Of a stretch of DNA of 64,000 nt, positions 2,122 through 50,022 are shown one piece after another (the first letter of the stretch is position 1; each line of letters starts with the position of its first letter). Location of the stretch: positions 261,082,001-261,146,000 of the forward strand of contig NC_091471.1 of the NCBI RefSeq assembly GCF_036971445.1. The letters run 5' to 3'. The stretch is from Narcine bancroftii (taxonomy: Eukaryota). The translations under genes and the position numbers were made by a program. Below the pieces are notes generated by a model. It saw only the letters and a program-made list of their open reading frames with translations. It was not told the DNA's origin and did not search any database.

Positions 2122-2309
2122 CTTTTTCTGCAGTCTCAACTTGTTCGAGGAACTCCGGTTGGAAATTCTCTGGTACATTATCCGTTCCCTCCAATGATGT
2201 TTTACACTCTGACCCAGCTTGGCTTGACTTGGAAGTATTTTCTTTACTAAACTGTGCCACTTTCTGCTTGTAATATTTGAACTCGTTGCTTTCTGCATCA
2301 TGTGAAAAT
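2122..2309 (-). CDS. SUGP2: SUGP2 exon: C-terminal half of SURP1 plus linker
   Basis: ttttaaag| (R)FSHDAESNEFKYYKQKVAQFSKENT...AEK G|gtaggg; phases 2 and 1 consistent with neighbours. Confidence 0.8.
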
Positions 2310-2971
2310 CTTTAAAATAAAGATTTTATTTTCAAAAATTAGGTCTTCCATTTCCTAGGCCGGACATTGACCAAAGATAAGAGGATAAGCAGCTATTAGC
2401 TAATATTGTACAACTTAGCTGTCAACATTAACACAATTGTCCCACTCTGCAGCAAATGTTTGGATGCTCCCCATGAGCACCAATGTGTTACTGTGCTGTA
2501 CCGTGTCCAAGTAGTTCTCATGTGTCTTTATGTTGGGACAAAATTTATCATTCTTTTTATTTTTAATAACTGAAGGCATAATAAAATGGTCGGGTTCAGT
2601 CAGAGACCCAAAAATGGAAGGGAAGTGAATTTAAGATTTTAAATGATTCTAAAGTTATAATTTTACTTTTAAAATGAGACGACGATTTAGACAAATTATT
2701 CACACAGACCCTATAATTAGTTTTCCCATTTACATTTGTAATGAGTTTAACATGGTTCGAGGATTCTGTATCATTTATATTATTATATACATTCATGATT
2801 GAGATCGATAGATTTTTCAACACCGTGGAAATCAAAAGATTGGCGGAGAGAACATCAAAAGATGGAATCAAACAGGAAAATTGAAAATACAAAATCAATT
2901 ATGATCCACCTGAACGGTACAGGAGGTGAAATGGCCGAGAAGTGATCCTTAATGTACATAATTGTGCTTAC

Positions 2972-3254
2972 CTATAATTAGGATCCTCTTTCTTGTACTG
3001 GATGACTGCTTTTTCTGCTGCCTCGCCCTTATCAGCAACAAACTTTGCCAATTTATGAATAACATTCTTGACCTGAGGATCTTCTGGGGGACAGATATTT
3101 TCTTCTCCTGCTGATGCCACATCATCTGCCATACTCTTGCTATTGCCATCAATGGATGCTGAACAGTTATCTGTCTTCTGTGTACTGCTGTCATCTGGTG
3201 CCAAAGAACCTACACCCGGCTGTGTGCCAGATTTGGAATCTGCTAAATTCAAAA
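2972..3254 (-). CDS. SUGP2: SUGP2 exon: N-terminal half of SURP1
   Basis: [43 protein letters not shown]|gtaagc; exact acceptor uncertain (three in-frame AGs). Confidence 0.8.
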
Positions 3255-4030: not shown

Positions 4031-4505
4031 AAGTGATTTCCCAGTCTACGTCCAGCCTCCCAATGGGAAAGCTAAAAGAGTCTCAAAACAGAAAGATCAA
4101 GGCAACAGGATATGGATGGGAAATGTCTCAGCTTTTTCAAAACAAGTGGATTTAAAATAATAAAGTAGTCACACTCTATGGGCATTCAGCCTTTTGGTAT
4201 CAAAACAGCAGGTGCAAAGGCTACATCGAGACTGTTGCAAATGTTGGAGCCACGAAGTGCCATGGAGGGCAAGAACTCGGCAAATATGGGATGAAACCTG
4301 TTCAATGACATCTGCAGCTTTGAGGGATTGCTGGATTAATGTATTTAAAAAAAAATCAAAACCATCCTCCTTAAGTTGTTATGTGATGGGATATTCAAAG
4401 TATTAAAAATCCTTCATAATAGCAATTGTGCATTGTAATCACAAATTAAATCTGTATATCTCGTTAAAAGATAGAAATTGTTACAAAATTATTTGGATTA
4501 CTTAC

Positions 4506-6446
4506 CTTTTGATGGCTTGATTGTTGCATCGTTTGTTGATTGTTCCTCTTTGATTAATGTATTGGAATTAGAAACCTGGCTATGTACAGGAGGGAGGGAG
4601 ATATGCTCCACTTGATTCCTCAGCTCATTTGTATATTTGTTCCCAAATAGCTCATTGTTTTCCAGATTCATGTAATACTCGTAGCTTGGAGCTACTGATA
4701 TCATTCCGGTTTTATTCAACAGATTCTTCCTTCTTTCTTGGCTGACAAATGCAAATGTTTGGCCAATAAATACTATTGACTGGCGGCAAGCCATGATCAC
4801 CTGCTCAAGTGTATTGGCAAGTTCATTAGGGGTCTCTGAGCTTTGCCCCTTGGAGCTCAACTCATGATTACTGCTTGCTACAAAAAGTGGGCCTACACAT
4901 TCCAATAGTCTGTTCTGAATTGCTTGCAAAAGGGGATCTTCTTGCTGTACAAGATCATCCAGCTCTTTCCTACATGTAATGATGTTCTTCTTTCTCAGCA
5001 ATGACACAAAAGAGTTATCTATCACAGGGCATGTGAGGCCGAAATGAGCTAATGACGATGACTGGCAGATATCCTGATGCTGCTGTGACATTAAGCACCG
5101 GAAAACTGAGGTTGCCTTAGAATATGTATCAGTGTTGGAATCAAACTTTTTTTTCATGGAATGATCAAGATCAACACTCTGAAAACCTGCCCATTTTATT
5201 ATTTGTTGCCCCAGTTCCATTTGATTACCTGCAGCAGTAGAAACATTTCCCAGTGATTGCAAATTAGAAGAGTCTGGGGACACATTTCTATAGGTGGCCA
5301 TTGGCACATTGGATACGGAAGACCCTGAAAAACCAGAGGGGGCTGTCCCTAGAAGCCCAGGGGCCGACTCTGTGAAAATAGGGGCTGTCCCTGGAAGGCC
5401 AGGGGCCACTCCCAGGAGCCCAGGAGCTATCCCTAGAAGGCCAGGTGCTACCCCCAAAAGACCAGGTGCTGTTCCAAGAAGGCCAGGGGCTCTCCCCAGA
5501 AGGCCACGTCGTGCAGGAAGCTTTGGACGCTTGAGCAAAGGTGCTCTTGTACTTTTAGGACCATGCAAAGAACGACCTCTTTTGGAAACATGCGTGCTTT
5601 TGTGACTACAACTCTGTTGGTTCAATTGAGGTTCATAATCCTCTGATCCTTCAAACCCAGGTGTAGATGTATCAGTCTGGTAAGCAGAAGAAATCATTTG
5701 AGCAGAGTCTCTAGATGGGTTGCTCCAGGATGCGTGAGAGGGATCATTTTTACTAGCTGCCTTACGCCGAGCATTATTAATAACATTACTTAATAACTTG
5801 TACAATTCTGCATCAGGTGCCTTTACAGGACTTCGGGATGAGGAGTGTGATTCCTGATCCCTAGTCTCATGACTAGGACTCCAGGATCGCCTGTGTGATT
5901 CTGAATGCCCTGACTTATCAGCAGGATTTTGTGACCTATTATATGAACCATGACTATCTCTGCCTTCAGGACTTTGGGATCTCCTATAGAATTGATAATC
6001 TCTTGAGTCATCAATTGCACTCTGAGATTTCCAATTATTCGAACTTCTGTACAATTCTGGTCGCTCTCGAGACTCATCAGGGCTCACCGATCTCCGGTAA
6101 ATCCCAGATCCTCTCCTAGCATCACTGTCACTTGAACTTGCCGGTCTTCCAAACAATCCTGAATCCCCACCAGATTCGGCAGAATTCCTTACTTCATTAT
6201 ATTGTGAACGCCGATTATCTCTGTCGACATGATCCGAGAAACTGTCTCGGGCTGAAGTAGAATAGGTAGCGTCATCATAATATCTTCTATTGTTTTCGGA
6301 ATGCATTTCTGCCTGATTGGACATATTCCTCCATCTCTCCGATCTGTGAGATGGAGATTCATACTCATCATAGGACAGCTCATCATACTGTGAATTTTCT
6401 TCATAAGATTCCCTGGGATATCGCCTGGATGCATAGTTGAGCATTT
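4506..6446 (-). CDS. SUGP2: SUGP2 large exon (1941 nt): RS/low-complexity N-terminus, GLLGxAP repeats, conserved helical domain
   Basis: 648-aa ORF; GQQIIKWAGF...VIDNSF...IQNRLL...CRQSIVFIGQTF...ELFG matches recalled human SUGP2 (GIEIIKWAGF...VDNEF...LQDRLL...CRKSLALLGQTF...TLFG); acceptor cattgaag|AA, donor G|gtaagt. Confidence 0.9.
5338..5505 (-). repeat. Coding tandem repeat, 8 x 21 bp (GLLGxAP heptapeptide)
   Basis: GLLGRAP GLLGTAP GLLGVAP GLLGIAP GLLGVAP GLPGTAP IFTESAP GLLGTAP. Confidence 0.95.
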
Positions 6447-9400
6447 CTTCAATGACAAAGGGAAGAAAGGAAGAAAAAAAGTGTTTAGCTTTTTTATTAA
6501 AATGGAAAAACTCTTAAAAAAAGTTGCAATCTATACTTCATGTAAAAGCTCATGTATTAGAGATCAGTTGGGCATGCTGATAACATCATTAAGATCAGGA
6601 AGACATGATGGGTTTTTTAAACCACATAATGCACCTGGCTGACTGCTTTTGGTAAATCTGGCCTAATCCAAGAGATGTAAGCAAGACAAACAGGATCATT
6701 TGTCCTAAAAATGGAGACATGTTGTCCTCCATAGGACACCAAGCAATAAGCATCCAAGAGAGAGTCGCATCTTTTCTCCATTGGGCTCAAGCGTGTATGG
6801 CGACTGCAAGTGTGAAGTGCCCTGGCATCATCCCGTTTGCTCAAACAGAGGAATGGAGCTTGGAGCAAACCAACTTTAGATAAAGATATCCACGAGTATA
6901 CTAAGCCAAGATACACTGGCCATTAGTACAAAGGATCGTTTCAGCAGACCAGATTCTGTATTTGCGCTCTCCTTTGTAATTCCCACAGGCAGCATGGTGT
7001 TGGTCCAGATGCAGAGGCGCATGTTGTTTCAACTCCAACAAGCTGATGTAGCTCAGCTTATTCTTTGACTAACAGCAGAATATGTAGCTCATGAAAGTCA
7101 TCTTCCAAACCAATCCATACAAGTAAGCCAAATTCAGGTCTGAGAAATTCATCGTCTTGAAATGCACACCAAAATTCTGCTTCCTCAAATCACTCAGTTC
7201 TTGCAATATCTCCTGGATCCACAATAAAAGCCAGATATGCTTTCAATAACATCAGTTGCATAAACAAGACCTGCATACAAGACTAACTGAAAATATAGAA
7301 TTCCAGTCTTTTGTGAGGTGGTACTCATTTACGTTTGTATGGTATTTTACATACCTCAGAATTTTTCAAAGCACTTTAGGATGAATTAATTGCTATTGAT
7401 ATGTAGGCTCTATTATAATGTGGGATCAACTGCACCAATTTTTTTCTAACAAGGCCTCAAAAACAACAAAGTGATAATTACCAGACAATTTGATTAATGT
7501 TGGTAGGATAAATAATGACCATAATTCCATTGAAAACTGCTCCAGGGATTTTTAAAAATCACTTTAGATTGCATATGGGCCTTGGATTAATATTACATTC
7601 GAAATGGCTCTTCCAATTGTACAATATCAAGGGTGTTGTGCATGAGGTCTATCAAGATCTTTGCAAAAGCTGCCATCAAGAAGGAAGACTGACTATTCTT
7701 GGCAGATTCATGTTTAGCTTGAGGAAATGTAACAATGTAGAACAAGCAAGATGAAAGAGTCAGATGAGGTACATGCAGACACGACTTCCAGAGACAAGTT
7801 ACTAGACCTTCCTGACGCCTGGAGCAAGATGTCCTTTGGGCATAAGCAACCGTCCTTCATCTGATCATTAAAAAGGACTTGAATTCAAATGGAACTTCCT
7901 TAATCTTAGGATTTTCAACAAAGTTTTGCAGACACTGAAATATTTTTAGTATAATCACTACTTTAATGAAGGTAGTCACTTCTGTAAAGAAGGAAATGTG
8001 GTAGCCATTTTGTGTGCAACGTTAACTTGCTGCACATTTAGACCAGCAATCACTTTAATGTTTCAAACTGAACATATCTGTAACAATGCATCCACTGTAT
8101 TAGTTACTTGCCTCCCCACTGTGAGCAATCAGTATCAACATATCTTGGTATATTTTCAAGGAAATCATTTGATCTACGAAACATGTTTACTGTGACTCTT
8201 TATAAATCTATCCACTTCACTGGATCACACTAATTGTAAAGTTAAGTAACTTTCCCGATGAAAACACAAACAGCCTACCTTAGCCTGTCAATAAAAGAAA
8301 AGTCTGAAGAAATAAAATAAAACAAAGAAAGTTCAACAAATAGATTAAAAATTGAAAGAGTGTGAAAAAGAAAAAAGGGAGAGGAGAGATGGGGAGGGGA
8401 GAGAAAGTTTTAAATATGACAATTGCTCCTGCCTATATAATTTGTTCCAGCAGTAAGTTTCAGACTCTTACCAACTTAAGAGTAGAAAGTTGTTTCCTGC
8501 TTTCCCTTCTAATCCTTTTACCAATAACTTTAAATATATACAGTATTTAATTTAGACCCCTCAAAATTTTCCTCTCAATCTTCTCTACACTGTTCTCAAC
8601 CTGTGGCCAAACTACTGCACACAGTTAAGGAGAATGACCTTGATTCTCTTACAATATATTCCTTGGCTAATAACATCATCATCATCCTTCCCTTTTTAAC
8701 CCATTGAACTGTCCAAGGCACCTTTGTTCCATCACACAATTATATATCCTCCCATTAATTATACATTCCCTTGCATTGTTACATCTCATGCTTCGAATTA
8801 AAATCAATTTCCCATTTTTCTCTTGAAGTGAACATCATCATTCTGCAGTCTAATGTTATCCTCAGTAGTTCATTAAAACAGACCCCTTTAAAAAATTAAT
8901 TCAGACAAAAAATTGTAAAAAAGGTGATTAAAATAAATTATTCTGAATCAATCAGGAAATCTAATTTAATCGCTTTAAAAATTGTTTCATTTTCTTGGCC
9001 TTCAGAAAAAAACATTTGGTCTCATCACTTTCATAATTTTATACACCTCAATTAAATCTCCCCTTTGCCTCCAAAGAAAACAACTCCAGCCTATCCAATG
9101 TACGCACTGATAAAACTTTCTGGTTCTTGTAACATCCTTGGAAATCTATAGACTCTCCAATATAATCACATCTTTCATGAAATTTGGTCACCAAACTGTA
9201 CACAAGCTGTCACCTAAGCTTGTTGCATACAATTCCAGCATAACATCTCTAGTCTCAGGACAAAAGTCATAACTTGTTTCCTGTCATCAAAAACTTTCAA
9301 GAAATGTATTCCTGTATTTTTTTTAAAAAAGGATATTTATCCTACAGGCACCCACCAAATCTGGCATTCTCCTCTTCAGCAAGTTGAGCCCCAAGCTTGA

Positions 9401-9669
9401 AATCAAAGGAGAAATTATTTTAAAAGCTCTCCTGTAGCTGCCTTTTTGAGGTATGGCAATGAACTACTAGATAACCAGCATGTGCTAAAAGTAAAGAATA
9501 AATCTAACAATGCGCATGTTCAAATTGAAATTTCATATAGTTCTCTAAGCAAAATATGACTTTCCTATGTTTCTTTTTAAGCACTAAATGGCAAGTACGA
9601 GACTTTTATTTTCAGGCAATTTTTTAACAAAATTTTGAGAGAAATCTTCATTTGGAAGGCATCAAGAAT

Positions 9670-9978
9670 TTCATTTACAAAAATCTACATCCCATTCAGA
9701 CCTGTTAAAAGATAGCCAAATAGGTCTGACACAAAATGCTTGCCACACTTCCCCATATAATTGTATATTATTACAATGAAAATATCAATAAGCTTTGGAT
9801 AATTTTCACTTATTTGAATTCAAGCACTGATTAAAGAGGTTCATTTTCTAAAATCCAAAACAGTTTTATTTCTAAGACCACTGGTGCTGAAATTTATACC
9901 CTAAAGGCACCTGGGCTGGTCAGTTCCACCAACCACTGTCATGAGCAAGCATCACACTCCACAGAGATCAGCTATCAA
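9670..9978 (+). repeat. Inverted repeat arm A (309 bp) in SUGP2 intron 1
   Basis: Reverse complement of 14263-14571; two mismatches seen by eye. Confidence 0.95.
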
Positions 9979-11795
9979 TGTACTGTTTCCTTTGAAAGGA
10001 AAGGATCTGGAAGAAAAACCTCATGGATAGTCTGAAAGAAAAGGCTTTCCTCTGAAAATACAATACCCACATGTCCATCTTTCATCATAGATTATTGCTT
10101 TACAAAGGAATATACTGTTCAGCAACAGGTCATTTACTTGTTAATAACCTCTTATACATCATAACCTCTCTCCATCCATCAGCACATCCTTCTTTGTTTT
10201 CCATCCATATGCACTGCTCTATCATTCCCTCAAATGCATGGAACATTTGTCTCAATTATTCTTTATGATAGGGAGTACTGGTCTCAATGAAGTGTAATGG
10301 CACATATTTCAGATTTTCAACTTGTGTCCCATTGAACTGCCAAAATGATTTGGTAATATTATTACTGCTTCTGTGTTGTGCTTGATGAAGCAATTCATAG
10401 CTGTATAAAACTGAAAATAAAGAACAGTTCCACATCAATAGAAAATACTCCAATTCCATTAACTCAATTATTGACTTTAAGACTTACAATTCATGCAATA
10501 TATTTAAACATTGGATATTAAACATCAATGACTGTACAAGTCAGGCACTGGGTGTTTTTTTGAGAGAAGTTCTTCAAGAGCATTTTTAAAATACGAAACA
10601 GTCGCAAAAAAGATAAGCCTAAATAAACATAATTTATCTTATTAAAGACTTAGATGCAACTTGATATCAATCATGGTTGAGGATATCACTACAATGGAAA
10701 CCATTTTAGCCTAAGAATAATCTTACTGCACAATGAATATATAGTGTGATAGCCTTCAACAGAGTCCAACTCCAATTTTGACTATACTGGATGTGAAATT
10801 TACATCTTAAAATAAAGTCAATGATTGCATCCATAAAACAGTTATTAGAGAAAGAATCATCCATGAAAAGAACAAAGTTTACCACACACAAAGGATTTCA
10901 TCAAATTAAGCTGCAAAACATCTTTTATATGCACAATAGATGCTAATGGTCTTAAGAGGTTTTCAATTGCTCTGTTCACCTGATTGAACATCAAGGCCGT
11001 TAACGGAGAGCATTTTAATGAAGTTCTTATAAATCCAACGATGATAATTGTATTTAATCCAGGATAAAGCATCATTTGGTTACATTTGGAATGAGTAGTG
11101 GTCTCAGGACCTTTAATCCACCTGGATTACCTTGGAGCCTTCAGGAATAGAAAATCTCCTGAATACATCTACAGGCAACCTGGGATGAAAGGTGCAGTGC
11201 TGTTTAAAATAATATAAATTATCATATTCTTTAAAGCATTTCAATTTTTAATGTTATATTGGATTTGCGAGGAAGGAAAGTGCCTTTGCAGGCAAGAGGT
11301 TATATATACACTGTAATATATATCCAAACATAATTAGCAATCCAAGTTAGTAATACGAGACCTTTCTCCAAATTGTCCCAGTCACCCGGTACAGCGTTGA
11401 GATCCTCTCCCCACAGAGACCCCAAACTAAAGGGCTGCCGGTCCTTTTGTCAACACGTGAAGCCTTCCTGGCTCGTTATTAAAAGGTCAGGAATACAAAG
11501 GACTTATTGGGCCATGTCCACCTCCGGGGCCGATAATCAAGGGTTTGCTGAGCCCTGGCTACACAGGTTTTGGCGAGCTGGATCTCTCCGCAACGCTGGG
11601 CCTCGGTTGCCCCTGATTACCATGTACAGGCCCAGCTTGTCATCAGATCCGCTTCGCAAAGATGCTGGAGAGCCAAGTCACACACAACATCCATCACAGC
11701 TGCAGCCTTTTATGACATCTTGCGTGCTAAACATGAAGCCTGATCGTTCTTCCCCAAGCACCCTCCCCCTCATCCCCCACCTTAGCCCCACAAAC

Positions 11796-14571: not shown

Positions 14572-15050
14572 GGTTACCGTAAAGAAAAGGATGTAAAGGT
14601 ACGAACCAAATAATGACCTTCAGAAACTAGACAGAGAATCACCGGAGTATCCAAACTTCTTAAATCTTCCAATCATGATAATATTCTATGAATGGCCCCA
14701 CATCTTTTCAAATTGAAGCTTTCTATCTATAATGTTGTGTCTCATTTTCTTCAAGTTGTAACCAATGTGTATGAGTAGGTTAAGAGTCATCTTTCCATTT
14801 CATTAAAATTGCTCGCCTGGCTATCAACGTGACAAAAGCTAAAACTTTCTCCTGAGATGCAGACAGAGATATGTCCGGTTCACTAGAAAAATCAAACAAG
14901 GCAATTAAAGGGCATGGTTCTATTTTGCTCTTAAAAGTTGTTGATAAAGTTTTGAAAATTTTTTCCCAAAATCTTCCTAAATTGGGGCACTCCCAAAACA
15001 TGTGAATCAACGAAACTTCAAAAATTTTACACTTCTCACATTTTACTTTA

Positions 15051-15975
15051 CTTTGGCTTGGCTTCGCGGACGAAGATTTATGGAGGGGGTAAAAAGTCCA
15101 CGTCAGCTGCAGGCTCGTTTGTGGCTGACCAGTCCGATGCGGGACAGGCAGACACGATTGCAGCGGTTGCAAGGGAAAATTGGTTGGTTGGGGTTGGGTG
15201 TTGGGTTTTTCCTCCTTTGCCTTTTGTCAGTGAGGTGGGCTCTGCGGTCTTCTTCAAAGGAGGCTGCTGCCCGCCAAACTGTGAGGCGCCAAGATGCACG
15301 GTTTGAGGCGTTATCAGCTCACTGGCGGTGGTCAATGTGGCAGGCACCAAGAGATTTCTTTAGGCAGTCCTTGTACCTTTTCTTTGGTGCACCTCTGTCA
15401 CGGTGGCCAGTGGAGAGCTCGCCATATAATACGATCTTGGGAAGGCGATGGTCCTCCATTCTGAAGACGTGACCCATCCAGCGCAGCTGGATCTTCAGCA
15501 GCGTGGACTCGATGCTGTCGACCTCTGCCATCTCGAGTACCTCGACGTTAGGGGTGTGAGCGCTCCAATGGATGTTGAGGATGGAGCGGAGACAACGCTG
15601 GTGGAAGCGTTCTAGGAGCCGTAGGTGGTGCCGGTAGAGGACCCATGATTCGGAGCCGAACAGGAGTGTGGGTATGACAACGGCTCTGTATACGCTTATC
15701 TTTGTGAGGTTTTTCAGTTGGTTGTTTTTCCAGACTCTTTTGTGTAGTCTTCCAAAGGCGCTATTTGCCTTGGCGAGTCTGTTGTCTATCTCATTGTCGA
15801 TCCTTGCATCTGATGAAATGGTGCAGCCGAGATAGGTAAACTGGTTGACCGTTTTGAGTTTTGTGTGCCCGATGGAGATGTGGGGGGGCTGGTAGTCATG
15901 GTGGGGAGCTGGCTGATGGAGGACCTCAGTTTTCTTCAGGCTGACTTCCAGGCCAAACATTTTGGCAGTTTCCGC
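15051..15975 (-). mobile_element. 5'-truncated RTE-clade LINE
   Basis: FTYLGCTIS...RLAKANSAFGRL...RLPKIVLYGEL...CNRCNRVC; near-identical to 45162-46722. Confidence 0.92.
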
Positions 15976-17033
15976 GATCAACATCTACATAAAAATGTGG
16001 ACATGTTTATTCTATGTACTGCCTTAAATTTTAATAAACAATGCCTTGCACAAAATGAGGAATCATTATCAAGCTAAGAATAGAGTACAATCTTCATCTA
16101 AAAATGTTATATTCCAATCACATTCTTAATTGTTCATAATTCCAGCCATTAAATCCAATAAGTCGTTATAAATGCATGATATTAATCCACCCTGAACAAA
16201 CCGTAAATTAAAAAATATATCAAGAATATTTGAGGAAAATAAGTAAGTTTAGACTGAACAAAATGTCTAACTTGTAAATATATTTTAAAAAGTCTATTAG
16301 AAAGATTAAATTTAGCTGACAATTGTTCTGAAGAGGCAAAGTTATCAAGAACAAAAAGATCTTTATAACTTTTAATACCTAATCTTTACCATTCCTTAAA
16401 GGCTGTATCTAACACAGATGGCTGAAGAAGATGATTATCTATAATGGGACTAGCAAGAGAAAAACAGTAACCAAAAATTCTAAATTTCTTTAACTCATTA
16501 GATTTGGTTATTTCTTCATACATATTGCAGGGAAAACAACCACATATAAATAAATCCCATCTTCAAAAGACTAAAAGGAATGGGGGACTATCACTTCCAA
16601 ATTTTAGATTTTATTATTAATATGATTAATATGTGTTATTTACTTTTATTATTACATTTTGATACATAATCAGTGAATCGCCCTTCTTGGGTAGAAATGG
16701 AACTGGTTTTCTAAAAAAATCATTGATGTCGGCAATTTTAACTCTTTTCCTTTTCTAATTGATACATCATTATTAATACTTATTTTTATCCAGATTTATT
16801 TATTTGCATTTAGTTTCTGTAGTGGGATTTGAACCATCTCCAGTTCATGGTTAATAGTCCAGTAACATAACTGCAATGATAGTGCACCACATGGATTGAG
16901 TTTATTGGAGGTCGGAATATTTTGCATTGTGCTCCTACTGACTGCAGAAGACTGATCAGTATTGTGCCTTTTTTTTTACTTCTTAAGTATCTTCTGCTTT
17001 TTTTTTTGGATTTTGTCTTTTTCCTCATTGCAG

Positions 17034-17235
17034 GAAAAACTGGTGGGACTCTCAAATCCAGTGGTGAGCGCTCTTTTAGTCTGGAACGTCTAGGTTCTTC
17101 CAACAGACCAAATAAACTGTATGTGAACCTAATGAAACAAGAGGAGCTGATAGCACAGAAGAAAAAAGAAATTGAGGCCAAAATGGAAAAGGCGAAGAAG
17201 GGCAGTTTTACAAAGCTGCAAACAGCACCTGTTCA
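17034..17235 (+). CDS. SUGP1: SUGP1 exon 2
   Basis: cattgcag|GKTGG...NLMKQEELIAQKKKEIEAKME...CA|gtaagt. Confidence 0.92.
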
Positions 17236-17629
17236 GTAAGTGCTAGTAAATGCTTCCAATTGTTAGTATTTGGGTCACTTCACATCTGACTAATTTATAT
17301 AATTTGCAATGGATAGAGTATTATGTCTGGAGCATTCATGGGATTCTTGAATATTTGGTAACGTGTTAAATTAGCATCACCCTTACTTTAAGGTTGTGCT
17401 GTGTGACCTGAGTTCCTTCAGCACTTTGGTGTATTGCATTACACTCACAGCATCTGCAGACTTTCTTGTTGAAATCCCATTTCCTCTTTCACACCCTCTT
17501 AGAATTTTATTCATTTCACCTCTTTTTCTAAATTCATGAGAATAGAGGCACACCCTATTCACTCTCTCCTTTGATTAACATGATATTTCAGGAACCTATC
17601 AGAATATTCCTGTAATTTTAAATTAAATT

Positions 17630-17858
17630 TTTAATTTAGACATACTGGCCCTTTTGGCTCACAAGTCCATGCCACCCCAAATACCCCTAATTGACTTACA
17701 CCCCCAGTAGCTTTTTCAACAGTGGGAGGAAACTGGACCACCCGGAGGAAACAGATGCAGATGGAGAACATACAAATTCCTTACAAACAGTATGGGATTC
17801 GAATCCCGGTTGCTGGCACTGTAACAGCGCTGAGCTAACCGCTACACTAACCATGCCA
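17630..17858 (-). mobile_element. tRNA-derived SINE
   Basis: Reverse-strand tRNA head with A/B boxes (tggcatggttagtgtagcggttagc...gggattcgaatccc) and shared SINE body. Confidence 0.65.
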
Positions 17859-18674
17859 CATATTTTTTTCAGTACAAAGACCTAGACACTAAACAATACC
17901 TTGTGTGTTGACACCAATGCCCTGTCTAATTGTAGTATGAGATCTTTACTCTGAAATCCCTTCTCCTGGGGGCTGGAAAATCCTTCTATTTCTCCATATT
18001 TTAAAGACCAAGATCAAAAGCTTCTTTGATAGATGTTACTGAATATTAAAGCTCAATAAATATTATTGATATTGCAATCTTATAGGATTTGGAGGAGGCA
18101 ATTGAGGTCAAATGGCCTAATCCTACATTCCCTTAATATTAATTTAAATTAAATCATTTTGCAATAAAAGCCAATGTGTTGTTTGCTTTCCAAATAATCT
18201 GCGGTACCTGCATATTATCCAACAGTAACTTTGAAGCAGGAGCAACCTATTCCATATATGGACACTTATATTTCTCAATCTTTTGCCAATTTTTTTTCAG
18301 CACCTGTTATTTCTACCATTATTTTTCTCCCAACTACACTGTTTTTGTCTATTTACTTTTCTATACTCTTTGAACCTGCATCTCATCATTAAATTGATAT
18401 TTTCCACTCATCTTTGTGATGTTGGCAATCTTGGAAGTATTACTTTTGGTCTCCTCATCGAGATTATTGATTTTGATTATGAACGGTTAGGTGTATGAAC
18501 AGTTATGTCCTGACCCTGATCCCTGAAGTACTCCATTGGTTACTGCCTGTCCCACATCCTCCTGGATTTTTGTCTTCTGGAAAGCATCTGCTTAATTCCT
18601 CTAGCAATTTTGTATTTGCCATTATAAATGTTCCTGTCCAGACTTGCATTTGCTCTCGATAGCATTTTAATTTT

Positions 18675-18900
18675 GGATGGCACAGTTGGTGTAGCAGTCA
18701 GCGCAATGCCAGCGACCAGGACTGGGGTTCATATCCTGTGCTATCTTTAAGGAGTTTGTACATTCTCCCTGTGTCATGTGGGTTTTCCCTAGGGCTCCAG
18801 TTTCCTCCCACCGTTTAAAATGTACTGGGGGTGTAGGGTAATTGGGTGTAAATTGGGCGGCACAGAATGAGCCGAAATGCCGTTTCCTGTATGTCTAAAT
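18675..18900 (+). mobile_element. tRNA-derived SINE
   Basis: ggcacagttggtgtagc...ggggttcatatcc...ggagtttgtacattctccctgtg...ctccagtttcctccca; same family as 17630. Confidence 0.65.
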
Positions 18901-21171
18901 TTTTAAAAAATTAAATATAAAAAATTTAACTATAGAAACTTGTATTTGCTTTGTATGTTTCTCACTCGTTTAGTCTCATTCTATTTTCTTTTTTTTATTT
19001 TTTTTCTTGGTCATCTTTTCTGAATTCTTGAAGATTTCCAGTCTATCAGGATTTTCCGGTGATTCATCGTTGGACTACTTTACCTGTTGTACATCATGGA
19101 TTACAGTATTTGTTTAAACGATAGCCCATTGTCTACTAATATTGTACCCTTCCATGTAGTTTCACAGCCTACCATAACCAATCTCCTAATTTCTATTTTG
19201 AGTCATGGTTTCCACTTAAACTACATCAATGTTAAAATTAATGTAAAATTATTTCATGTTATTGTTATGCTTTTTAATGGAGCCCCTTCGAGAAAGTAGA
19301 TTTTAGAATATCATCAAAATGTAATTTTTAAAATGATGACTGGAAGGGAAAGGGGGGCTGCATTTCTTTCTTGTCCTCAACGGGAGCTGATAAGAAGATC
19401 CTTATTTGGTAGGTGATGTGAAAATAATTGAAGATTCCTGAGAATTTTAAGGAATATATACCTGTATGGAGTAGTCTATTCAAATGTTCCAGAAACTAGA
19501 GATAAATTAGATAATTTTGTAAGATATGAGTTTTGTGGTAAATTAGCAGCTTTTGGCTGTGCTTTTTGCTGTAACGGAGTTCTCAAACTTTGCAAAGTGA
19601 TTAAAAGGTTTTTTTTTCAGTTCCATCCATATTAGCTTTGGACGAACTTCAGATCTACTTTAAAACCTGCATAACGGGATTAGCTCCAAAGTAGTTCCTT
19701 GACATATTGGCCTAAAAATCGACCTCATTTACATATTCTCAATATTATAAGTATGAATTTAATTTCCCCAATTTCTCTGTCAATTAAAGTCCCATGTGAT
19801 TACTATGTCTTCTTTGTTTCATGCACTCCAATGTATTTATACTGTCCTATATCACAACTTCTATTTTGAGGCTGATAAACAATTCCCATTTTTGATTCTA
19901 TTCCTTTTTTTCCTAAGATCCACCAAAAAATATTTTAGTTCTTCACCACGATTGCCAAAGCAATATCTTTTCTGACTACTCTACATATATATCATCTCTT
20001 ATATAAGAGTACTACCTCTCATTTTTTCATGCTCTTGCTAAATGTTGAATACTCTTCAGAACTTTTTATCTGAGTAAACAATGGAGGCTGAGTCATTGTA
20101 TAAATTCAGGATTGAGAAAAGCTCCTATCAATATACTTAAACAAAACTGCATTGGTTCTTCTTACTACACTGAGGTGACAGTTGAAGAACAATGTGCCTC
20201 TGATGGAGGCAATTTGGTTTTTTAATCATTGTACCAGTTATCTATAGATTTGCACTTCCATGCTCTTCCTCAGTTTTTTTTCCTTGTCACCTTTCAAATC
20301 CTTCATTCTCTTTTGAACATTGCTACTGCATGGGCTTCCAACGCTTTCTCAGTAGCTTGTGGTGTACAGGATAAAATCCCCATGTTGGCTCCGCCAAACA
20401 GCAATAAATAGTCTTCTCAAGATATTTTCTGAAGCTGAGAAACAAAATCTGGAGATGCTGAATCTTGAGCAAACAAAGAATTGCTGGAGGAACTCAGCAG
20501 ATCAAACAGCATCCACGATCAATGTTGTTGATTGACTGTTTCTACTCATGGATGCTGTCTGTGGTGTTCTCTAGCAATTCTTTGTCTGCTGTTCTCTTGT
20601 TGCTGGAATTAGTTCTTGATTGTTTTGTTAAAAGCATTAATTAATTTTGAACAAATCTGCCACATGATTTCCACTGCTTTAAACCACAATCCCATCTCTT
20701 CTCACCACTGAACTGAGCTCCATGATAATACCTCACGATATCAAAGACGACCATTTGCTGAATCGTAGGAAGTACTTTCTTGTGGCTCCACGTAATGACT
20801 TTTTTTTTCGTAACTTTTGGAAAATTTTCCTTTTGAATGCTCTACCATACTCTGGACCTTAGTGGCCACTGCCTCACTAAAATTTTGGTTCTGCAGATGA
20901 GTCTTTGAATTCCCCCTCCTTCAAGCTCACCGGATAAAATAAATAGCTGGAGATGGCCTACATCATATAGTCCTTTGTACAGATATTCTTTCATGGCAAC
21001 TCTTCTCTGTATTGACACTTTCTAAAACCTTCTAAGTACTATTGACTTTCAACCCATTGGGTCCAATGTTAATTCTATTGATAGCAACTTCAATGAATTT
21101 TGACGTTTGTATCAAGCCCTTGATTTTTGCAGATTAGTGTTGAATTCATTGATATTCTAACTATTCTGCAG

Positions 21172-21266
21172 GGATAGTGACCAAATAAACTCATCTAACA
21201 AATTTGCCAATGATGGGAGTTTCCTGCAGGAGTTTCTGAAGATGCAGAAAGAAAAAGCAAGTTCAG
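21172..21266 (+). CDS. SUGP1: SUGP1 exon 3
   Basis: SNKFANDGSFLQEFLKMQK; AG/GT boundaries, phases 2 and 1. Confidence 0.93.
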
Positions 21267-21656
21267 GTGAGGAGAGTTTGGAATGCAAAAAAGTTGATGA
21301 GTTCACTGTGGAGATCTGAGGCCTGCTGAAAGACCAGCATTTGGAATGCTGTGGTCACCACAGTGCCCTGATTTTTTAAAATCTCAGTAGGTCAGGCAAT
21401 GTTTGCTGGAATACTTGATTTAAGAATGAATGATGGAATTAGTCATTGTAAAATCATACATTTTCCTAGTTGTATTTCAAAGGTGGTATGATTGGGAATC
21501 GGGGAATTTACTCCTGGATTTCAAGTATAGTTAGAAATTTAACTCTTGCAGCAAAGCTTTGGCAATAAGTAGATTGGCAATTTTAAATGCAACTTCTTGG
21601 TGAGTGCTTTTGACTGCAGCAACAGATCCACTGATTTGAGACTTTTTACTGAAAAG

Positions 21657-21902
21657 GGGGTCCAACTGGTAATGGCAGCAACACCACTAGCCCTTCTGGA
21701 ACCCAGTCGCAGAAGAGACAAGTTCTAATCGGGAAGCGACCAGGCCTAGGAATGAGCTTGTTAGGCAGCACTTTAGGCCAAATGAAGAACTACACCCACG
21801 CCAAGCAAACACCAGTTGCCAACCGTCCCAGAGTTTTCCAGTCGCCAGATGACGATGATGAGGAAGAGGATGATGATCTGGAAGAGTGGGCAGAAGTAAA
21901 AG
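21657..21902 (+). CDS. SUGP1: SUGP1 exon 4
   Basis: ...[57 protein letters not shown]|gtaagt; acceptor tactgaaaag. Confidence 0.88.
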
Positions 21903-24900
21903 GTAAGTCGCAGCACTTAAACTCTAAAACTGTACATTAGATTTTAGCTGCTGTCATGCAATGAGTAAGGAATCTGGATGGAATTTGAGAAGTTTAGAAA
22001 CTTGGCAGTGCTGCAGACAAAAGTTTTTTCTTAAGGTTATTGACTTGTACCACAATTCGAGTCAGTGGACTGTGATAACTTGGCTTAAGGTTGGGATGGC
22101 AGTCAGAATTCCACTTACACATGCCATTCTCTCATCTTCTGTTGCATTCAGTTCTTTTTCCACATTGGGGTAAAATTGGTTGCTATATTTCCAAAATGGT
22201 GATGAGACAATGCTTCTGAAGTATTTCAGCCATTGTACAGTGTATTCCAGTATCCTGAAGTTTTGATCATTATATGAAAACCAATTAGATGCTCTTTACA
22301 TTAAAAGAAAAATTCTCACTGTTTCCACTCTTTTCCCATTTCCCCCTGTACATAAGCAGTGGGATCCATAAGGACACTGGGTAACATCATGCACTGCATT
22401 CAACCAAGTGATAGCAAGGACCCTTAGTAAAATTGAATCTAATAGAAAGTTCAGGGAAAAAGTCTTCTTACATGAAAATTGTCTTGTAAGAGACAAATGA
22501 TCTTAAACCCAAGCAATTACTGCATGTGCACTTTGGGACAGTCCTATGTTCAACCATTTTTAACTATCTTTAATTATCACGATTCAGAAGTGAGCAGTGC
22601 CTTTTAATTGTAATGCTCAATTTCAATTTCTGTTCCTTGGAAAATAAAACCAATCATGTCTACTTGAAACCAGGGTAACATATGAGGCATGATGCCATAC
22701 AAATGTCAATTATTATTGCCATCAAGTGAGAATTTAATCACTTCCCCTGAATATTCAACATTGTTTCCATCTCTTGCCCACATTCAGTGTCCTGAGTATC
22801 AATCATAAAGATGAAATTTTCTAGTCCAGCTTGTAAATAACATGCCTATAAATCTAGATCAGTGGCTGGTTTTCCTGAAGTCACTGACTTGCCTTCAGCA
22901 TCTCCACAGCATTTTCCCAAACTGCAAAATGCTTCACACCATTAAAGGGCAAAGGACTTGCATAATTTGCACCACAGAAGACACCTTAAATATTTATTTC
23001 CTACACTGGCTGTAGTTTGCATTGTCAAGAATGAGTACTTTAACGACTTGTGAAGGTTTCTTCGGCATTACCTCCTAGGCAGGACAGCGGTTGATTGTAA
23101 ATGCTAGCATGGTGTCGCTGGCCAATTCACATGCCACTTAAAATGGAAGTATGTCGCTTCCTTAATCATTGCTGCACTAAAATCTTGGAACTCCTCATCA
23201 GAATTCACTATGAGGTGGGCATTAAATTCTGAATTTGTTAATGATGCTGATGCCCTCTGAATTATTTAAAAATAGTTGCTGCCAGGATTTTAGTCACTTA
23301 GGAAAGCTTGCAGTAAGTCATTGTGAAAATATTCCCCAAGCACCATGTTCAAGAGCGGAGAGCATTGGCAGTGGTGGACTGGATGTGCACTTTTATTTGT
23401 AGTTGTTCAGCGGTTACATTAAGTGGCCATTTGCTTCTGTAAAATTCTCTCTCAAGACAAAGGAAAATCGACATTTGGCGAAAGTAATGTCATTGACTTG
23501 GAAAACTGTCAAAGAGCTTAGCAGCCAATTTATCATTCTCATACTATAAGGATAAAAGCGCAGTAAGGATTTGCAAATGGCATCCACCCATAAACTGCAC
23601 TGTGATCATTACTAGAATTAATGTTTACGTATTGGTTTAGGTACTGACATCCACTAAGTTAGAATATAAAGGTAGATGATCAAGAAATATAAACGTAGAT
23701 GGAGTATTTGTAGGTACACAAAAACAAAAAGATGAGTGAGGATAAATTTCTAATCTTAGAGCAACTCAGAAGGAGGCTGTTTAGATCCCCCTCCACCCCC
23801 CCCCCCCCCCATCTCATTTCCTGTGCCCTGCTTTCCTGCCTTTTATTCTCTCTCACATACGCCTGGGAACTTCATTTCCATTGTGAATGGCAATTTACAG
23901 CATCTGTTTTGGCATATGGATGGCATTTGAAGGATACAAAGCCACCTGCAAATATTCAGAGAGCACACAAGGTGCACACAGAAAACATCCAAGGTTTAGA
24001 TGAGAGAATCAAGGATCTGGCAATAATGAACTAAGGATTAGAGAAGATGGTGAGTTTGAAACCTGATAATCTCCAAGTTTTAATGATTTGAAAGAGGTGG
24101 CTTTAGAGATGGTGGGTGCTCTGGTTATCTTCTTTGAAGGTTCCATAGATACTGGAAATGTTCATGTGGATTGGAGGGTAGAAAATTAAGTCCCACTGTT
24201 TGAGAAAGAAAGATGAGAGCTACTGACTTGTTAGCCTAATGTTAGGAGCAATGCTGGAAACCATACAAAGAAATAACAGTAGAACACCTGAATTATTTAG
24301 TTATTCTTTGCGGTGGGCTGCAAATAATTCACTTTTTAAATCTGTGGAAAGAAAGTTGTCTACAGAGCCACAGTGAATTGTGGCTAAATCCAAAATGAGG
24401 AACCATTGAAGAGGTTCCCATGTCTATTATGGACAAAAGAACCAATGAATGGCAATCTCTAGTCATAACATTTGAAGAGTTAAAATTAAAAAGCAACACC
24501 AGTGTGATTTGATTTGCTATTTGGGTGATGAAAACTGAACGAATTGATGCCTTCAAACAAGAATTATATTGGCAGTAGAAATAACTTGCAGGACTACAGT
24601 GAAAGAGCAAGAGAATGCAGCTCAAGGGATTTCTCTGCAAGGAACAAGTGCTAACATTGTATGATAATGCAGCAATGAACAAAAGTTATGCCTAGTTTGT
24701 TATTCAGCCAACATCACTGACTAATTATCTAATAATTATTGCATTGCTATTTATGGGAGTTGCTGGGCATGTTGGCATTTCTTAACTTAAAAGAATTTTC
24801 CCAGATTGAGTTAATGTTCATGAAAGTACATTGAGCCTACAGATTGCTTGTGGGATTTATATCTGGAGAGCACTAATGAAAGCCTCCTTAGCTATGATGA

Positions 24901-25541
24901 GGAGCAAGGAAGTTTTATTTCCTCCAATTTTCTATCATGATTTTTTGAAGTCCGTTTCTCACTGGGCTTCAGTCTCTGAAATCCCCTTTGGTACCTCGTA
25001 AAATTGGTGGCAAAAATTAGCAGAAAATATAGGACTGGCTTTCTAAATCATTAGGAATGACTCAATGCCAAATGTTATCCTGTACTTAGTCAAAAATGCA
25101 TGCCGTGCATGCACTTATTTGCTATTCCAAAAATAGTCACTATCATGAGAAGAGGGAATATGAATTCATCACCCTTGCCCTACCCTGTTTTCTCTCAAAA
25201 TACGTGACCACTTGAACCCATTTTAAGCAGCTAATCTGGCTAAGATCAGCCATCTTTTTGGAAATCAAACTGGAAAGCTGCTGGCCTATAGGGCTGCTGA
25301 AGTCATTAACATTTTATACACCTAGACATTGAAAAAGGACATTTTTGGTGTATTTGGAAGGCAATGAGAAAACTTTACAAATGTAGTATTGATATCGAGT
25401 AGTTTAGAATGCATCTGCATCCTGCTTTTAACCCATAATCTTCCTCTATCCTGCTCTTACACATCTACGTTTGTAGACCTTGTTTGGCTGTTGACTGTAA
25501 GGTGTGTGAGTTGAACTCAAGTACTGATAGCCTGCTTAAAG

Positions 25542-25665
25542 TTTTACCCCCAGAGGACCCGGAAGTGAGGAGTGTCGCAGAGAAGCTGGCAAAATATGTG
25601 GCAGATGGGGGTCATGAAGTTGAAAAGCTTGCCATTCAGAACAACAGAGACAACCCTGCCTTCTC
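25542..25665 (+). CDS. SUGP1: SUGP1 exon 5 (SURP1 N-half)
   Basis: VLPPEDPEVRSVAEKLAKYVADGGHEVEKLAIQNNRDNPAFS|gtgagt. Confidence 0.92.
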
Positions 25666-25719
25666 GTGAGTACTGTTAGTCAATTTAGCCAGTAATGTAG
25701 CTGAAATATATCAAAAAAA

Positions 25720-43030: not shown

Positions 43031-43989
43031 TTTCGGTCTCCTTACTTTTTTTAAAAATTTTTATTTTTCACACTATAAGCCACATTGATCAAGATACATA
43101 CATTTTCCTTTTCAAATATATACAGTGTCGTTTTCTCCCCCCTCCCTCTTCCCCTCCCACCCTCCCTACCTCCCCTGCCATTCATTTAACATTCAGAATC
43201 TAAGATACATTAAACCCGTCAAACAATGTTGTCACTCAGTAAAAATAAACAAGAAATTCAACTGAGTCAGTTCTTTTCATTCTCTTCTCCGTCATTTTAG
43301 GCGGTAGATGTCCCCGATAGGTTTTCTCTATTATGTTTTATGTATGGCTCCCATATTTGTTCAAATATTTTAATATTATTTCTTAAATTATATGTTATTT
43401 TTTCTAATGGAATACATTTATTCATTTCTATATACCATTGTTGTATTCTCAAGTTATCTTCTAATTTCCAGGCTGACATAATACATTTTTTTGCTACAGC
43501 TAGGGCTGTCCTAACAAATCTTTTTTGTGCACCATCCAAATCAAGTCCAAATTCTTTGTTTTTTATGTTACTTAGGAGAAAGATCTCTGGGTTTTTTGTT
43601 ATATTGATTTTTGTGATTTTATTTAATATCTGGTTTAGATCTTCCTAAAATTTTTTCACTTTCTCACATGTCCAGATTGCATGAATTGTTGTTCCCATTT
43701 CCTTTTTACAGCAAAAACATCTGTCAGATACTGTTGGGTCCCATTTATTTAACTTTTGAGGTGTAATGTATAGCCTGTGTATCATACGTAACCTCATGTT
43801 TATTGTATTTCTCATAGTTCCAGAGCATAACTTCTCCCATGTTTCCTTCTTTATCATTATGTTTAGATCTTGTTCCCATTTTTGTTTAGTTTTACCATTT
43901 GTTTCCTCATTCTCCTTTTCTTGTAGTTTAATATACATGTTTGTTATAAATTTTTTGATTATCATTGTGTCTGTAATCATATATGATGA

Positions 43990-44938
43990 TGGTGGTGGTG
44001 AATTGGATTAGTAAATATGCAGACAATACTAAGATAGGTGGAATAGTGGATAATGAAGAAGGTTTTCAAGGATTGCAGAGGGATTTGGGCTGCTTAGAAA
44101 AATGGGCTGAAAAATGGCAGATGGAATTTAATGCTGATAAGTGTGAGGTGCTTTATTTTGGTAAGAAGAATCAGAATAGGACATACATGGTAAATGGGAG
44201 AGCATTGATGAATACAGAAGAGCAGAAAGATTTAGGAGTAACGGTACCTCGTTCCCTGAAGGTAGAAACTCACGTGAATAGGGTGGTGAAGAAGGTTTTT
44301 AGTATGCTGGCCTTTATCAATCATTGCATGGAATATAGGAGTTGGGAGGTGATGTTGAGATTGTATAAGACGTTGGTGTAGCCTAATTTGGAGTTCTGTG
44401 TGCAGTTCTGGTCGCCTAATTATAGGAAGGATATAAACAGAGTGGAGAGAGTGCAGAGAAGGTTTACCAGAATGTTACCTGGGTTTAAGCATCTAGAGTA
44501 TAGGGAGAGATTGGACAGATTAGGTCTTTATTCTTTGGAGCGTAGAAGGTTGAGAGGGGATTTGATAGAAGTATTTAAGATTATGAAAGGGATAGACAGA
44601 ATGTATGTGGATAGACTATTTCCATTAAGAGGAGGAAAGATTAAAACAAGAGGACATGAGTTAAGAATTAAGGGGCAGAGGTTTAGAGGTAACATGAGGG
44701 GGAACTTCTTTACTCAGAGAGTGGTAGCCGTGTGGAATGAGCTTCCGGGAGAAATAGTGGCGGCGGAGTCAATTGTATTATTTAAGAAAAGGTTGGACAG
44801 GTATATGGATGAGAAGAAGATGGAGGGTTATTGGCATTGTGCAGGGAGGTGGGACTAGAAAGGGGTGTTTGGTTCGGTGCGGACTAGAAGGGCCTAATGG
44901 CCTGTTTCCGTGCTGTAATTGTTATGTTATGTTATGTT
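43990..44938 (+). mobile_element. 5'-truncated CR1 LINE nested in the L1
   Basis: KYADNTKIGG...EFCVQFWSP...RRLRGDLIEVFK...FFTQRVV; (gttat)n tail. Confidence 0.9.
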
Positions 44939-45161
44939 AAAATTACTTCCCTCTGGTAACCTCAGACTGCTTCCCAATTTGTCCTTCAAGTAGGATTTCA
45001 GTTGGTAGTATGCCAACACTGTATCATGAGTCATATTATATTTATCATTCATTTGTTCAAAGGATAATAATTTATTTTCCGAAAAGCATTTTTCTATTCT
45101 ATTGATCCCTTTTTTCTCCCATTCTCTCTCTATTGTAAAAGGGATTAGCTGATTTTGAGTC

Positions 45162-46722
45162 AGGGGAATCACGTTGCTCTCCATTGCAGGCAAAATCTTC
45201 GCTAGGATTCTACTAAATAGAATAATACCTAGTGTCGCCGAGAATATTCTCCCAGAATCACAGTGCGGCTTTCGCGCAAACAGAGGAACCACTGACATGG
45301 TCTTTGCCCTCAGACAGCTCCAAGAAAAGTGCAGAGAACAAAACAAAGGACTCTACATCACCTTTGTTGACCTCACCAAAGCCTTCGACACCGTGAGCAG
45401 GAAAGGGCTTTGGCAAATACTAGAGCGCATCGGATGTCCCCCAAAGTTCCTCAACATGATTATCCAACTGCACGAAAACCAACAAGGTCGGGTCAGATAC
45501 AGCAATGAGCTCTCTGAACCCTTCTCCATTAACAATGGCGTGAAGCAAGGCTGTGTTCTCGCACCAACCCTCTTTTCAATCTTCTTCAGCATGATGCTGA
45601 ACCAAGCCATGAAAGACCCCAACAATGAAGACGCTGTTTACATCCGGTACCGCACGGATGGCAGTCTCTTCAATCTGAGGCGCCTGCAAGCTCACACCAA
45701 GACACAAGAGAAACTTGTCCGTGAACTTCTCTTTGCAGATGATGCCGCTTTAGTTGCCCATTCAGAGCCAGCTCTTCAGCGCTTGACGTCCTGCTTTGCG
45801 GAAACTGCCAAAATGTTTGGCCTGGAAGTCAGCCTGAAGAAAACTGAGGTCCTCCATCAGCCAGCTCCCCACCATGACTACCAGCCCCCCCACATCTCCA
45901 TCGGGCACACAAAACTCAAAACGGTCAACCAGTTTACCTATCTCGGCTGCACCATTTCATCAGATGCAAGGATCGACAATGAGATAGACAACAGACTCGC
46001 CAAGGCAAATAGCGCCTTTGGAAGACTACACAAAAGAGTCTGGAAAAACAACCAACTGAAAAACCTCACAAAGATATGCGTATACAGAGCCGTTGTCATA
46101 CCCACACTCCTGTTCGGCTCCGAATCATGGGTCCTCTACCGGCACCACCTACGGCTCCTAGAACGCTTCCACCAGCGTTGTCTCCGCTCCATCCTCAACA
46201 TCCATTGGAGCGCTCACACCCCTAACGTCGAGGTACTCGAGATGGCAGAGGTCGACAGCATCGAGTCCACGCTGCTGAAGATCCAGCTGCGCTGGATGGG
46301 TCACGTCTCCAGAATGGAGGACCATCGCCTTCCCAAGATCGTATTATATGGCGAGCTCTCCACTGGCCACCGTGACAGAGGTGCACCAAAGAAAAGGTAC
46401 AAGGACTGCCTAAAGAAATCTCTTGGTGCCTGCCACATTGACCACCGCCAGTGGGCTGATAACGCCTCAAACCGTGCATCTTGGCGCCTCACAGTTTGGC
46501 GGGCAGCAGCCTCCTTTGAAGAAGACCGCAGAGCCCACCTCACTGACAAAAGGCAAAGGAGGAAAAACCCAACACCCAACCCCAACCAACCAATTTTCCC
46601 TTGCAACCGCTGCAATCGTGTCTGCCTGTCCCGCATCGGACTGGTCAGCCACAAACGAGCCTGCAGCTGACGTGGACTTTTTACCCCCTCCATAAATCTT
46701 CGTCCGCGAAGCCAAGCCAAAG
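45162..46722 (+). mobile_element. RTE-clade LINE with an uninterrupted 498-aa RT ORF, nested in the L1
   Basis: LPESQCGFR...FVDLTKAFD...GVKQGCVLAP...LLFADD...C-terminal CNRC..H zinc finger; 3' gccaagccaaag. Confidence 0.95.
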
Positions 46723-49700: not shown

Positions 49701-49924
49701 GGGCAACCACATCTCCCCTCTCCATTTGGATTTGCGAATTCACTCGCAAGCGTCAACTGATTTCGCAGTGACCGTACCTCCTCCCCACCCAGCCCCCCCC
49801 CCCAGAAAAGATTTTAATTTTCATATACAACAAAGGTCACTCTCTTAATTCCCTCCTTACTTCCTCTCTTCCCTTTCTTTCCTTATTAATTCTTATCTAT
49901 ACTCTATATATTTTCTCTTAAATG

Positions 49925-49955
49925 CATATATACACATGTACACACATATATACAT

Positions 49956-50010
<55 letters not shown>

Positions 50011-50022
50011 CACATACATATA
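49925..50022. repeat. (CA)n/(TA)n microsatellite in the L1 inter-ORF spacer
   Basis: Direct reading. Confidence 0.9.

Follow-up and report, generated by a model that had tools for sequence, protein, structure and literature searches.

A 64,000-nucleotide stretch of the genome of the ray Narcine bancroftii (RefSeq assembly GCF_036971445.1, contig NC_091471.1, positions 261,082,001 to 261,146,000 of the forward strand; hereafter the window, in whose numbering positions are given) carries on its minus strand the gene for SUGP2. Profile comparisons show that a conserved domain in the middle of this protein is homologous to open reading frame 1 (ORF1) of DIRS-type elements. The domain would be the ORF1 ("gag") of a DIRS-type tyrosine-recombinase retrotransposon, which a duplicate of SUGP1 would have taken in as one frame-preserving exon before the cartilaginous and bony vertebrates split; two matrin-family genes of cartilaginous fishes would owe optional 3' exons to the same ORF1 lineage. 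Taken jointly, the homology to ORF1, the capture of a single exon by a SUGP1 duplicate before that split and a role of the domain in dimerisation are quite likely.

The large SUGP2 exon and its conserved domain

The gene is identified as the ray SUGP2 by its full product, P0002, in which Pfam recognises a pair of SURP modules and a C-terminal G-patch and whose exons lie further downstream, likewise on the minus strand. In one database search, all 12 of the other matches were named SUGP2-like. The large exon (4506..6446, minus strand), to which P0002 maps, is 1,941 nt long, a length divisible by three, with phase 1 at either end. It is normally included: in four runs out of four, RNA-like contigs connect it with its neighbours through canonical joints, from 6446 to the upstream exon at 11362 and from 4506 to 3254, where the SURP exon lies. 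The four runs belong to one study and their RNA nature was guessed, though the exon joints are canonical. A low-depth joint from 10980 to 3254, seen in one of the four runs (depth 15 versus 594), leaves out the whole 1.9-kb exon.

A sequence-only reading of the window had located a conserved domain and a set of motifs inside one 1.9-kb SUGP2 exon. This was confirmed by the contig joints, which make the 1,941-nt exon a single one, and by the minus-strand frame 4498-6513, in which all the motifs sit (CPVID at ~5031, the Q of AIQNR at ~4917, ERRK at 4737-4726, LFG at ~4650) and where an ATG at 6444 gives a product of 648 aa. The conserved, all-helical domain covers ~220 residues (406-625 of the 648-aa frame; 4570..5229, minus strand), for which no Pfam match was found. 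It is 59-87% identical over 12 cartilaginous fishes, and the linker behind it 32-72%. An unseeded phmmer search of 1.84e9 representative proteins gave 51 matches, namely 40 SUGP2-like proteins, seven other host proteins, three frog ORFs and one artefact (P0065, a repeat artefact, which was removed). Names are known for 22 of the 51, and it is on these that the taxonomic spread of the domain rests: the named SUGP2-like matches come from chimaera, shark, coelacanth, amphibians, turtle, gecko, bird and pangolin. The frame is open and the domain conserved from chimaera to mammals, which would imply purifying selection.

Relationship with ORF1 of DIRS-type elements

Likeness to DIRS ORF1 had been proposed from the sequence, with a significant profile or structural match set beforehand as the check, and profile matches were obtained with phmmer, with hidden Markov models (HMMs) and with hhalign. 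The frog ORFs matched by phmmer are P0062 (E 1.7e-5), P0063 (E 4.1e-5) and P0064 (E 2.5e-4). An HMM of 44 SUGP2 domains, containing no element sequence, was compared with 14 element proteins: 11 match at E<1e-4, the best of them at 1.4e-15 (Z=1.8e9), and the three that are missed are models cut or broken within the domain; the top score among 1,428 reversed or shuffled decoys is 4.9 bits. With an HMM from 37 bony-vertebrate sequences alone, the best element is found at E 1.2e-13. Reciprocally, an HMM of the elements detects 28 of the 44 SUGP2 domains at E<0.01, scoring 39-54 bits in cartilaginous fish and 19-49 bits in bony vertebrates. Alignment of the SUGP2 and element profiles with hhalign gives 99.1% and E 7.9e-19 over 164 columns; the aligned core corresponds to residues ~439-614 (4603..5130, minus strand) and overlaps the part aligned to LAP2alpha 492-689. 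Identity between the SUGP2 domain and the elements is 17-30%, and six columns (P, Q, P, Q, N, L), spread over 130 residues, are invariant in 12 host and element sequences. Frog ORF1s (P0062, P0063, P0120, P0122) and SUGP2 have in common F..P.iD, Q..l...v.PL, GQtF...s..R and apk...fPN.e.s.LFG..f. The sequence-only reading had held that the ERRK and LFG motifs are kept more clearly in this lineage than in human SUGP2. For ERRK, this agrees with the FRQE of amniotes; the frog elements read NIRRA or NIRRS, so that R alone is shared. LFG speaks against the claim, the motif being kept in all eight displayed SUGP2 rows, including pangolin, bird and turtle.

The frog ORFs belong to a multi-copy family: in one frog species, relatives lie on at least seven large contigs, and Xenopus has relatives as well. 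In P0122, the ORF carrying the domain continues into a reverse transcriptase (RT; RVT_1, Pfam E 5e-21), and in P0062 and P0129 it continues into a tyrosine recombinase (YR) of the phage-integrase type (Pfam E 0.004 and 0.003, respectively, both short of the cut-off). P0124 contains a 27-residue stretch resembling a methyltransferase (MT), with YAFPP, which matches the Dam-like region of ray elements. A methyltransferase, like inverted terminal repeats, marks DIRS proper as against Ngaro/PAT elements. Together, the frog gene models give ORF1-RT-MT-YR, which is the order expected of DIRS elements, a methyltransferase step included. ORF1, RT, RNase H and a recombinase have been described as the content of these elements (PMC4495291). 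In the ray genome itself, the recombinase part of P0129 matches at least 59 degraded copies, and 18 of 20 fetched have an RT upstream. One recombinase-bearing copy (among loci L043-L062) has a Dam-like stretch, and the ORF1 of such copies belongs to another family than the frog ORF1.

Likeness to LAP2alpha

The AlphaFold2 (AF2) model of the SUGP2 domain (mean predicted local distance difference test score, pLDDT, 83; predicted template modelling score, pTM, 0.77) has long helices at 97-126 and 134-174. As the sequence-only reading had anticipated, the search for similar structures led to LAP2alpha: 2V0X, its dimerisation domain, was the top match both in Foldseek and in VIA-align. In the latter it ranked first of 48,161 PDB chains (Z 8.1, root-mean-square deviation 5.0, 163 residues aligned) and was the sole chain with Z>=8, over model residues 30-209, the runner-up reaching Z 6.2 over 69 residues. 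In the ESM Atlas, the SUGP2 domain was closest to unnamed arthropod clusters (0.95) and then to a cluster in which LAP2alpha accounts for 25% (0.91, 179 features), and the model of frog P0063 matched a cluster with 77% LAP2alpha at a TM score of 0.77. The AF2 model of P0063 was poor (pLDDT 53), and 2V0X was not among the 50 rows that VIA-align returned for it. A search of a viral structure library gave nothing below E 0.44. One chordate cluster of the ESM Atlas bears the automatic name "ZNF326 isoform X1", and 77% of its 56 members have PF11560, the Pfam LAP2alpha family; this cluster possibly represents another RNA-binding gene that captured ORF1, or is wrongly labelled.

It can be proposed with moderate confidence, from these models, that the SUGP2 domain resembles the LAP2alpha fold and had the same kind of origin, without being a member of PF11560. 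Like the LAP2alpha part of TMPO and the ZNF451-L2a domain (PF11560, 2V0X; PMC4495291), it would derive from a DIRS-type ORF1, is encoded by one large exon and belongs to a nuclear host protein. Unlike the alternative terminal exon of LAP2alpha, the SUGP2 exon is internal, preserves the frame and is normally included; and unlike LAP2alpha, which is restricted to mammals, the SUGP2 domain is common to cartilaginous and bony vertebrates. The lack of a PF11560 match and the 9% identity to 2V0X point to an ORF1 lineage other than that of LAP2alpha.

Further host copies

A search of the ray's own genome found the domain at two more places, among eight candidates scored, and frog P0063 used as a query leads to the same three places. 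The first additional copy lies on the near-terminal exon of a ZNF638-like gene (C8:2900186-2955051), the domain occupying C8:2953994-2955047 (L002 1214-2267). The preceding exon, from the RNA-recognition motif (RRM) region, splices into the domain exon in four of four runs and has an alternative exit to another exon, also in four of four. This is the host copy nearest to the frog ORF1 (36%, E 2e-19). The second copy ends an unnamed matrin-family gene (C21:56485464-56530734, domain C21:56504769-56505674), whose product P0060 also has a zinc finger, an RRM and an Arg/Ser/Glu-rich exon. The annotated isoform P0078 omits the domain exon and uses a different last exon, and the gene has orthologues in sharks and rays. 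Both matrin-family copies repeat the pattern of LAP2alpha and LAP2beta, namely an alternative 3' exon. In addition, P0052 and P0090, labelled by their source as coelacanth, represent an uncharacterised orphan gene that stands alone and contains the domain; its long branch in the tree is possibly that of a further domestication.

All host copies (SUGP2, ZNF638-like, matrin-like and coelacanth) share an insertion of ~10 residues after P-x-I-D, which the frog ORF1s lack, as well as an upstream WA motif that is missing from the frog ORF1s. With hhalign, the profiles of the host paralogs and SUGP2 match at E 8.7e-38, a closer relation than that of SUGP2 with the elements (E 7.9e-19). The shared insertion would reflect either a single domestication whose exon was later copied, or several captures from the same extinct family. 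Unlike the amphibian elements, the host copies are single-copy, conserved and part of host messages, and no RT or recombinase remnants were found near any of the three in this genome.

Origin, direction and age

In the tree, all SUGP2 domains fall on one side (100/99), which divides into a cartilaginous and a bony lineage. Because of this split, the domain would have been present in SUGP2 before the two parted. The trees, of 43 and 23 selected rows, are unrooted. A transfer from element to host is very likely, because the frog ORF has the normal ORF1 position, the fold is LAP2alpha-like, the domain is coded by single exons in unrelated host families and SUGP1 has no match. SUGP1 (SF4) shares with SUGP2 the pair of SURP modules and the G-patch at the C terminus; unlike SUGP2, it does not match the ORF1-like domain. 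The paralog lies at 16883..37666 on the plus strand (ends approximate, from SURP and G-patch exons), and the product of its G-patch exon is almost the same as SUGP1 chain 8ejm_B. The two genes are head-to-head neighbours (SUGP2 minus, SUGP1 plus; 11362-37666), an arrangement consistent with origin by local inverted duplication. No match to the domain profiles was found in SUGP1, and among 1,597 six-frame ORFs of the window, one, that of the SUGP2 exon, matches. The proposal of the sequence-only reading that a SUGP1 duplicate captured the exon fits this head-to-head paralog with no match to the domain.

Several results weigh against an origin from a DIRS ORF1 with a LAP2alpha-like fold. On the LAP2alpha side, the Pfam check suggested by the sequence-only reading came out negative: in scans of host and element proteins, PF11560 never matched (E<=10; in one scan E<=0.05). 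It also matched nothing in this genome, where the controls matched nothing either, which makes that search uninformative. Searches of PDB sequences with the domain or its profiles returned no LAP2alpha chain, the first rank of 2V0X in Foldseek was weak (E 0.94, TM 0.36), and a Z of 8 for a helical model can reflect a common arrangement. On the element side, significant matches are limited to one family, in frogs, whose domain order is known from spliced gene models rather than from element DNA. None of 20 loci of this genome's own DIRS-like copies matches the domain profiles; their ORF1 aligns on the same motifs, but its profile-profile score of 18.3 does not reach the maximum of 21.0 seen in 60 shuffled controls. 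With one element family and a basal polytomy, the tree gives neither the direction nor the number of captures. It should be noted that the ORF1 of the ray's own copies matches the frog ORF1 no better than it matches the SUGP2 domain; since the frog ORF1 also goes unmatched, the mismatch carries no information and does not count as contrary evidence. A further profile search, limited by the word filter, gave 24 matches and no further element families.

Among the alternatives, a second-hand capture is possible but doubtful: the ORF1 exon would have undergone a single domestication, either in SUGP2 or in a matrin-family gene, and exon shuffling would have passed it to the other genes. The SUGP2 domain would then still derive from an element, though not by direct capture. 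The insertion and the WA motif common to all host copies, and the closeness of the host paralog profiles to SUGP2, speak for it. However, several captures from one extinct element family would yield the same insertion, and TMPO and ZNF451 are a precedent for capture occurring twice (PMC4495291). Moreover, the exon anatomy differs, the SUGP2 exon being internal with phase 1/1 and those of the matrin-family genes near-terminal and alternative. The tree does not settle the question: a single clade for the two matrin-family genes was not rejected in a topology test (p-AU 0.38).

The reverse transfer, in which one frog DIRS family acquired an old host domain as its ORF1, is very improbable. It would account for significant matches in the frog family but not in the elements of this genome, and is compatible with an unrooted tree. 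However, the frog ORF occupies the usual place of ORF1 ahead of the RT, the fold resembles that of LAP2alpha, itself independently traced to a DIRS ORF1 (PMC4495291), and each host copy is coded by one exon, in gene families that are unrelated, with no match in SUGP1. Finally, a chance likeness of helical, coiled-coil-like regions, which the low identity to the elements and the weak Foldseek match might suggest, is refuted as far as SUGP2 and the frog ORF1 are concerned and has practically no probability left, given E 1e-15 at Z=1.8e9, decoys at or below 4.9 bits and the invariant P, Q, P, Q, N and L along the domain; the link to LAP2alpha stays moderate.

Possible function of the domain

By analogy with 2V0X, the SUGP2 domain may well act as a dimerisation module. 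The long antiparallel helices of the model (H97-126 and H134-174) would pair two SUGP2 chains in a LAP2alpha-like manner. Pairing would double the low-complexity and SURP arms, which would provide avidity for nascent introns and chromatin and favour the coating of nascent introns. In LAP2alpha, C-terminal dimerisation is required for chromatin association, which an artificial dimeriser restores; lamin A/C is another partner of the C terminus, which shows residual chromatin binding as well (PMC11417337). Human SUGP2 is reported to be found mostly on chromatin, to bind long or deep introns and to repress splicing largely without DHX15, and is described as LINE-binding (long interspersed nuclear elements); SUGP1, unlike SUGP2, is reported to act with DHX15 near branch points (10.64898/2026.06.30.735655). 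Mouse SUGP2 knockouts are fertile and show many splicing changes (PMC8558236).

One may also tentatively suppose, though this appears rather unlikely, that the element-derived domain was retained for binding nucleic acids or partners (a gag-like surface for packaging RNA, lamin or hnRNP) and not for self-pairing. The identifiable host carriers are all RNA-binding proteins (SURP, RRM, zinc finger), and both the binding of deep introns and LINE RNA by SUGP2 (10.64898/2026.06.30.735655) and the lamin A/C and residual chromatin binding of the LAP2alpha C terminus (PMC11417337) would agree with such a role. However, the SUGP2 domain has no evident basic or CCHC RNA-binding motif, and the top structural match is a dimerisation domain (2V0X).

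More speculatively, and with low probability, dimerisation could extend beyond SUGP2: early in the history of jawed vertebrates, at least three RNA proteins that bind introns (SUGP2 and those of the two matrin/ZNF638-family genes) would have taken up one DIRS ORF1 lineage, as a shared code of homo- and heterodimerisation building repressive complexes on retrotransposon-rich introns. If this were true, a packaging protein of retroelements would have been repurposed to police retroelement RNA. The SUGP2 copy is the only one so far known to persist into mammals.

Other features of the window

Upstream of the domain, the large exon encodes PGLLG-type heptad repeats (5341..5513, minus strand), recognised from sequence and alignment. 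Their copy number differs among sharks and rays, and the chimaera has none (no aligned counterpart). Further upstream, its translation gives an Arg/Ser/Asp-rich low-complexity N-terminal region (5600..6444, minus strand), with 47-83% identity among cartilaginous fishes. The upstream exon spliced to the large exon covers 11362..11742 (minus strand; joint 6446-11362, four of four runs). The next two exons, 2972-3254 and 2122-2309 (2122..3254, minus strand), encode the first SURP module, as indicated by Pfam Surp and by the joints. Many fragments whose motifs suggest LINEs occur at ~14800-16000, 25800-28100, 33600-34600 and 43300-52200, in SUGP1 introns and downstream.

Prior knowledge and significance

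Abascal et al. (2015) found homology in placental mammals in TMPO and ZNF451 only (PMC4495291), and the text-searchable supplementary files of that article contain no SUGP2, SFRS14, ZNF638 or shark. In the available part of a 2018 Repbase review, LAP2alpha and ZNF451 are the sole DIRS-derived human domains named (PMC5753468), and in PMC12129022 LAP2alpha appears in the reference list only. The literature searched, which leaves most subscription papers outside, contains no report linking SUGP2 with DIRS or LAP2alpha, SFRS14 with a retrotransposon or ZNF638 with DIRS. SUGP2 is listed once among genes with an HMM-predicted "ERV-ORF" (endogenous retrovirus), the accessible text of that source leaving the domain unnamed and not mentioning DIRS (10.1101/628875 = PMC7499964). 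This listing is possibly an earlier hint and may bear on novelty. Retroviral protease profile sets include the G-patch, which would explain the listing.

The SUGP2 case is judged a genuine domestication, probably one not reported before; it is older than the known cases and normally included in the message, with recurrent copies in cartilaginous fish. It would be the third DIRS-derived case beside LAP2alpha and ZNF451, much older than these and carried by an internal exon. The matrin-family copies suggest that capture of DIRS ORF1 has been recurrent in vertebrates. With this assignment, the unannotated middle of SUGP2 would gain a name and a fold, and the domain offers a testable reason for the divergence of SUGP2 from SUGP1 toward a chromatin-bound protein that binds deep introns and LINEs and is largely independent of DHX15.
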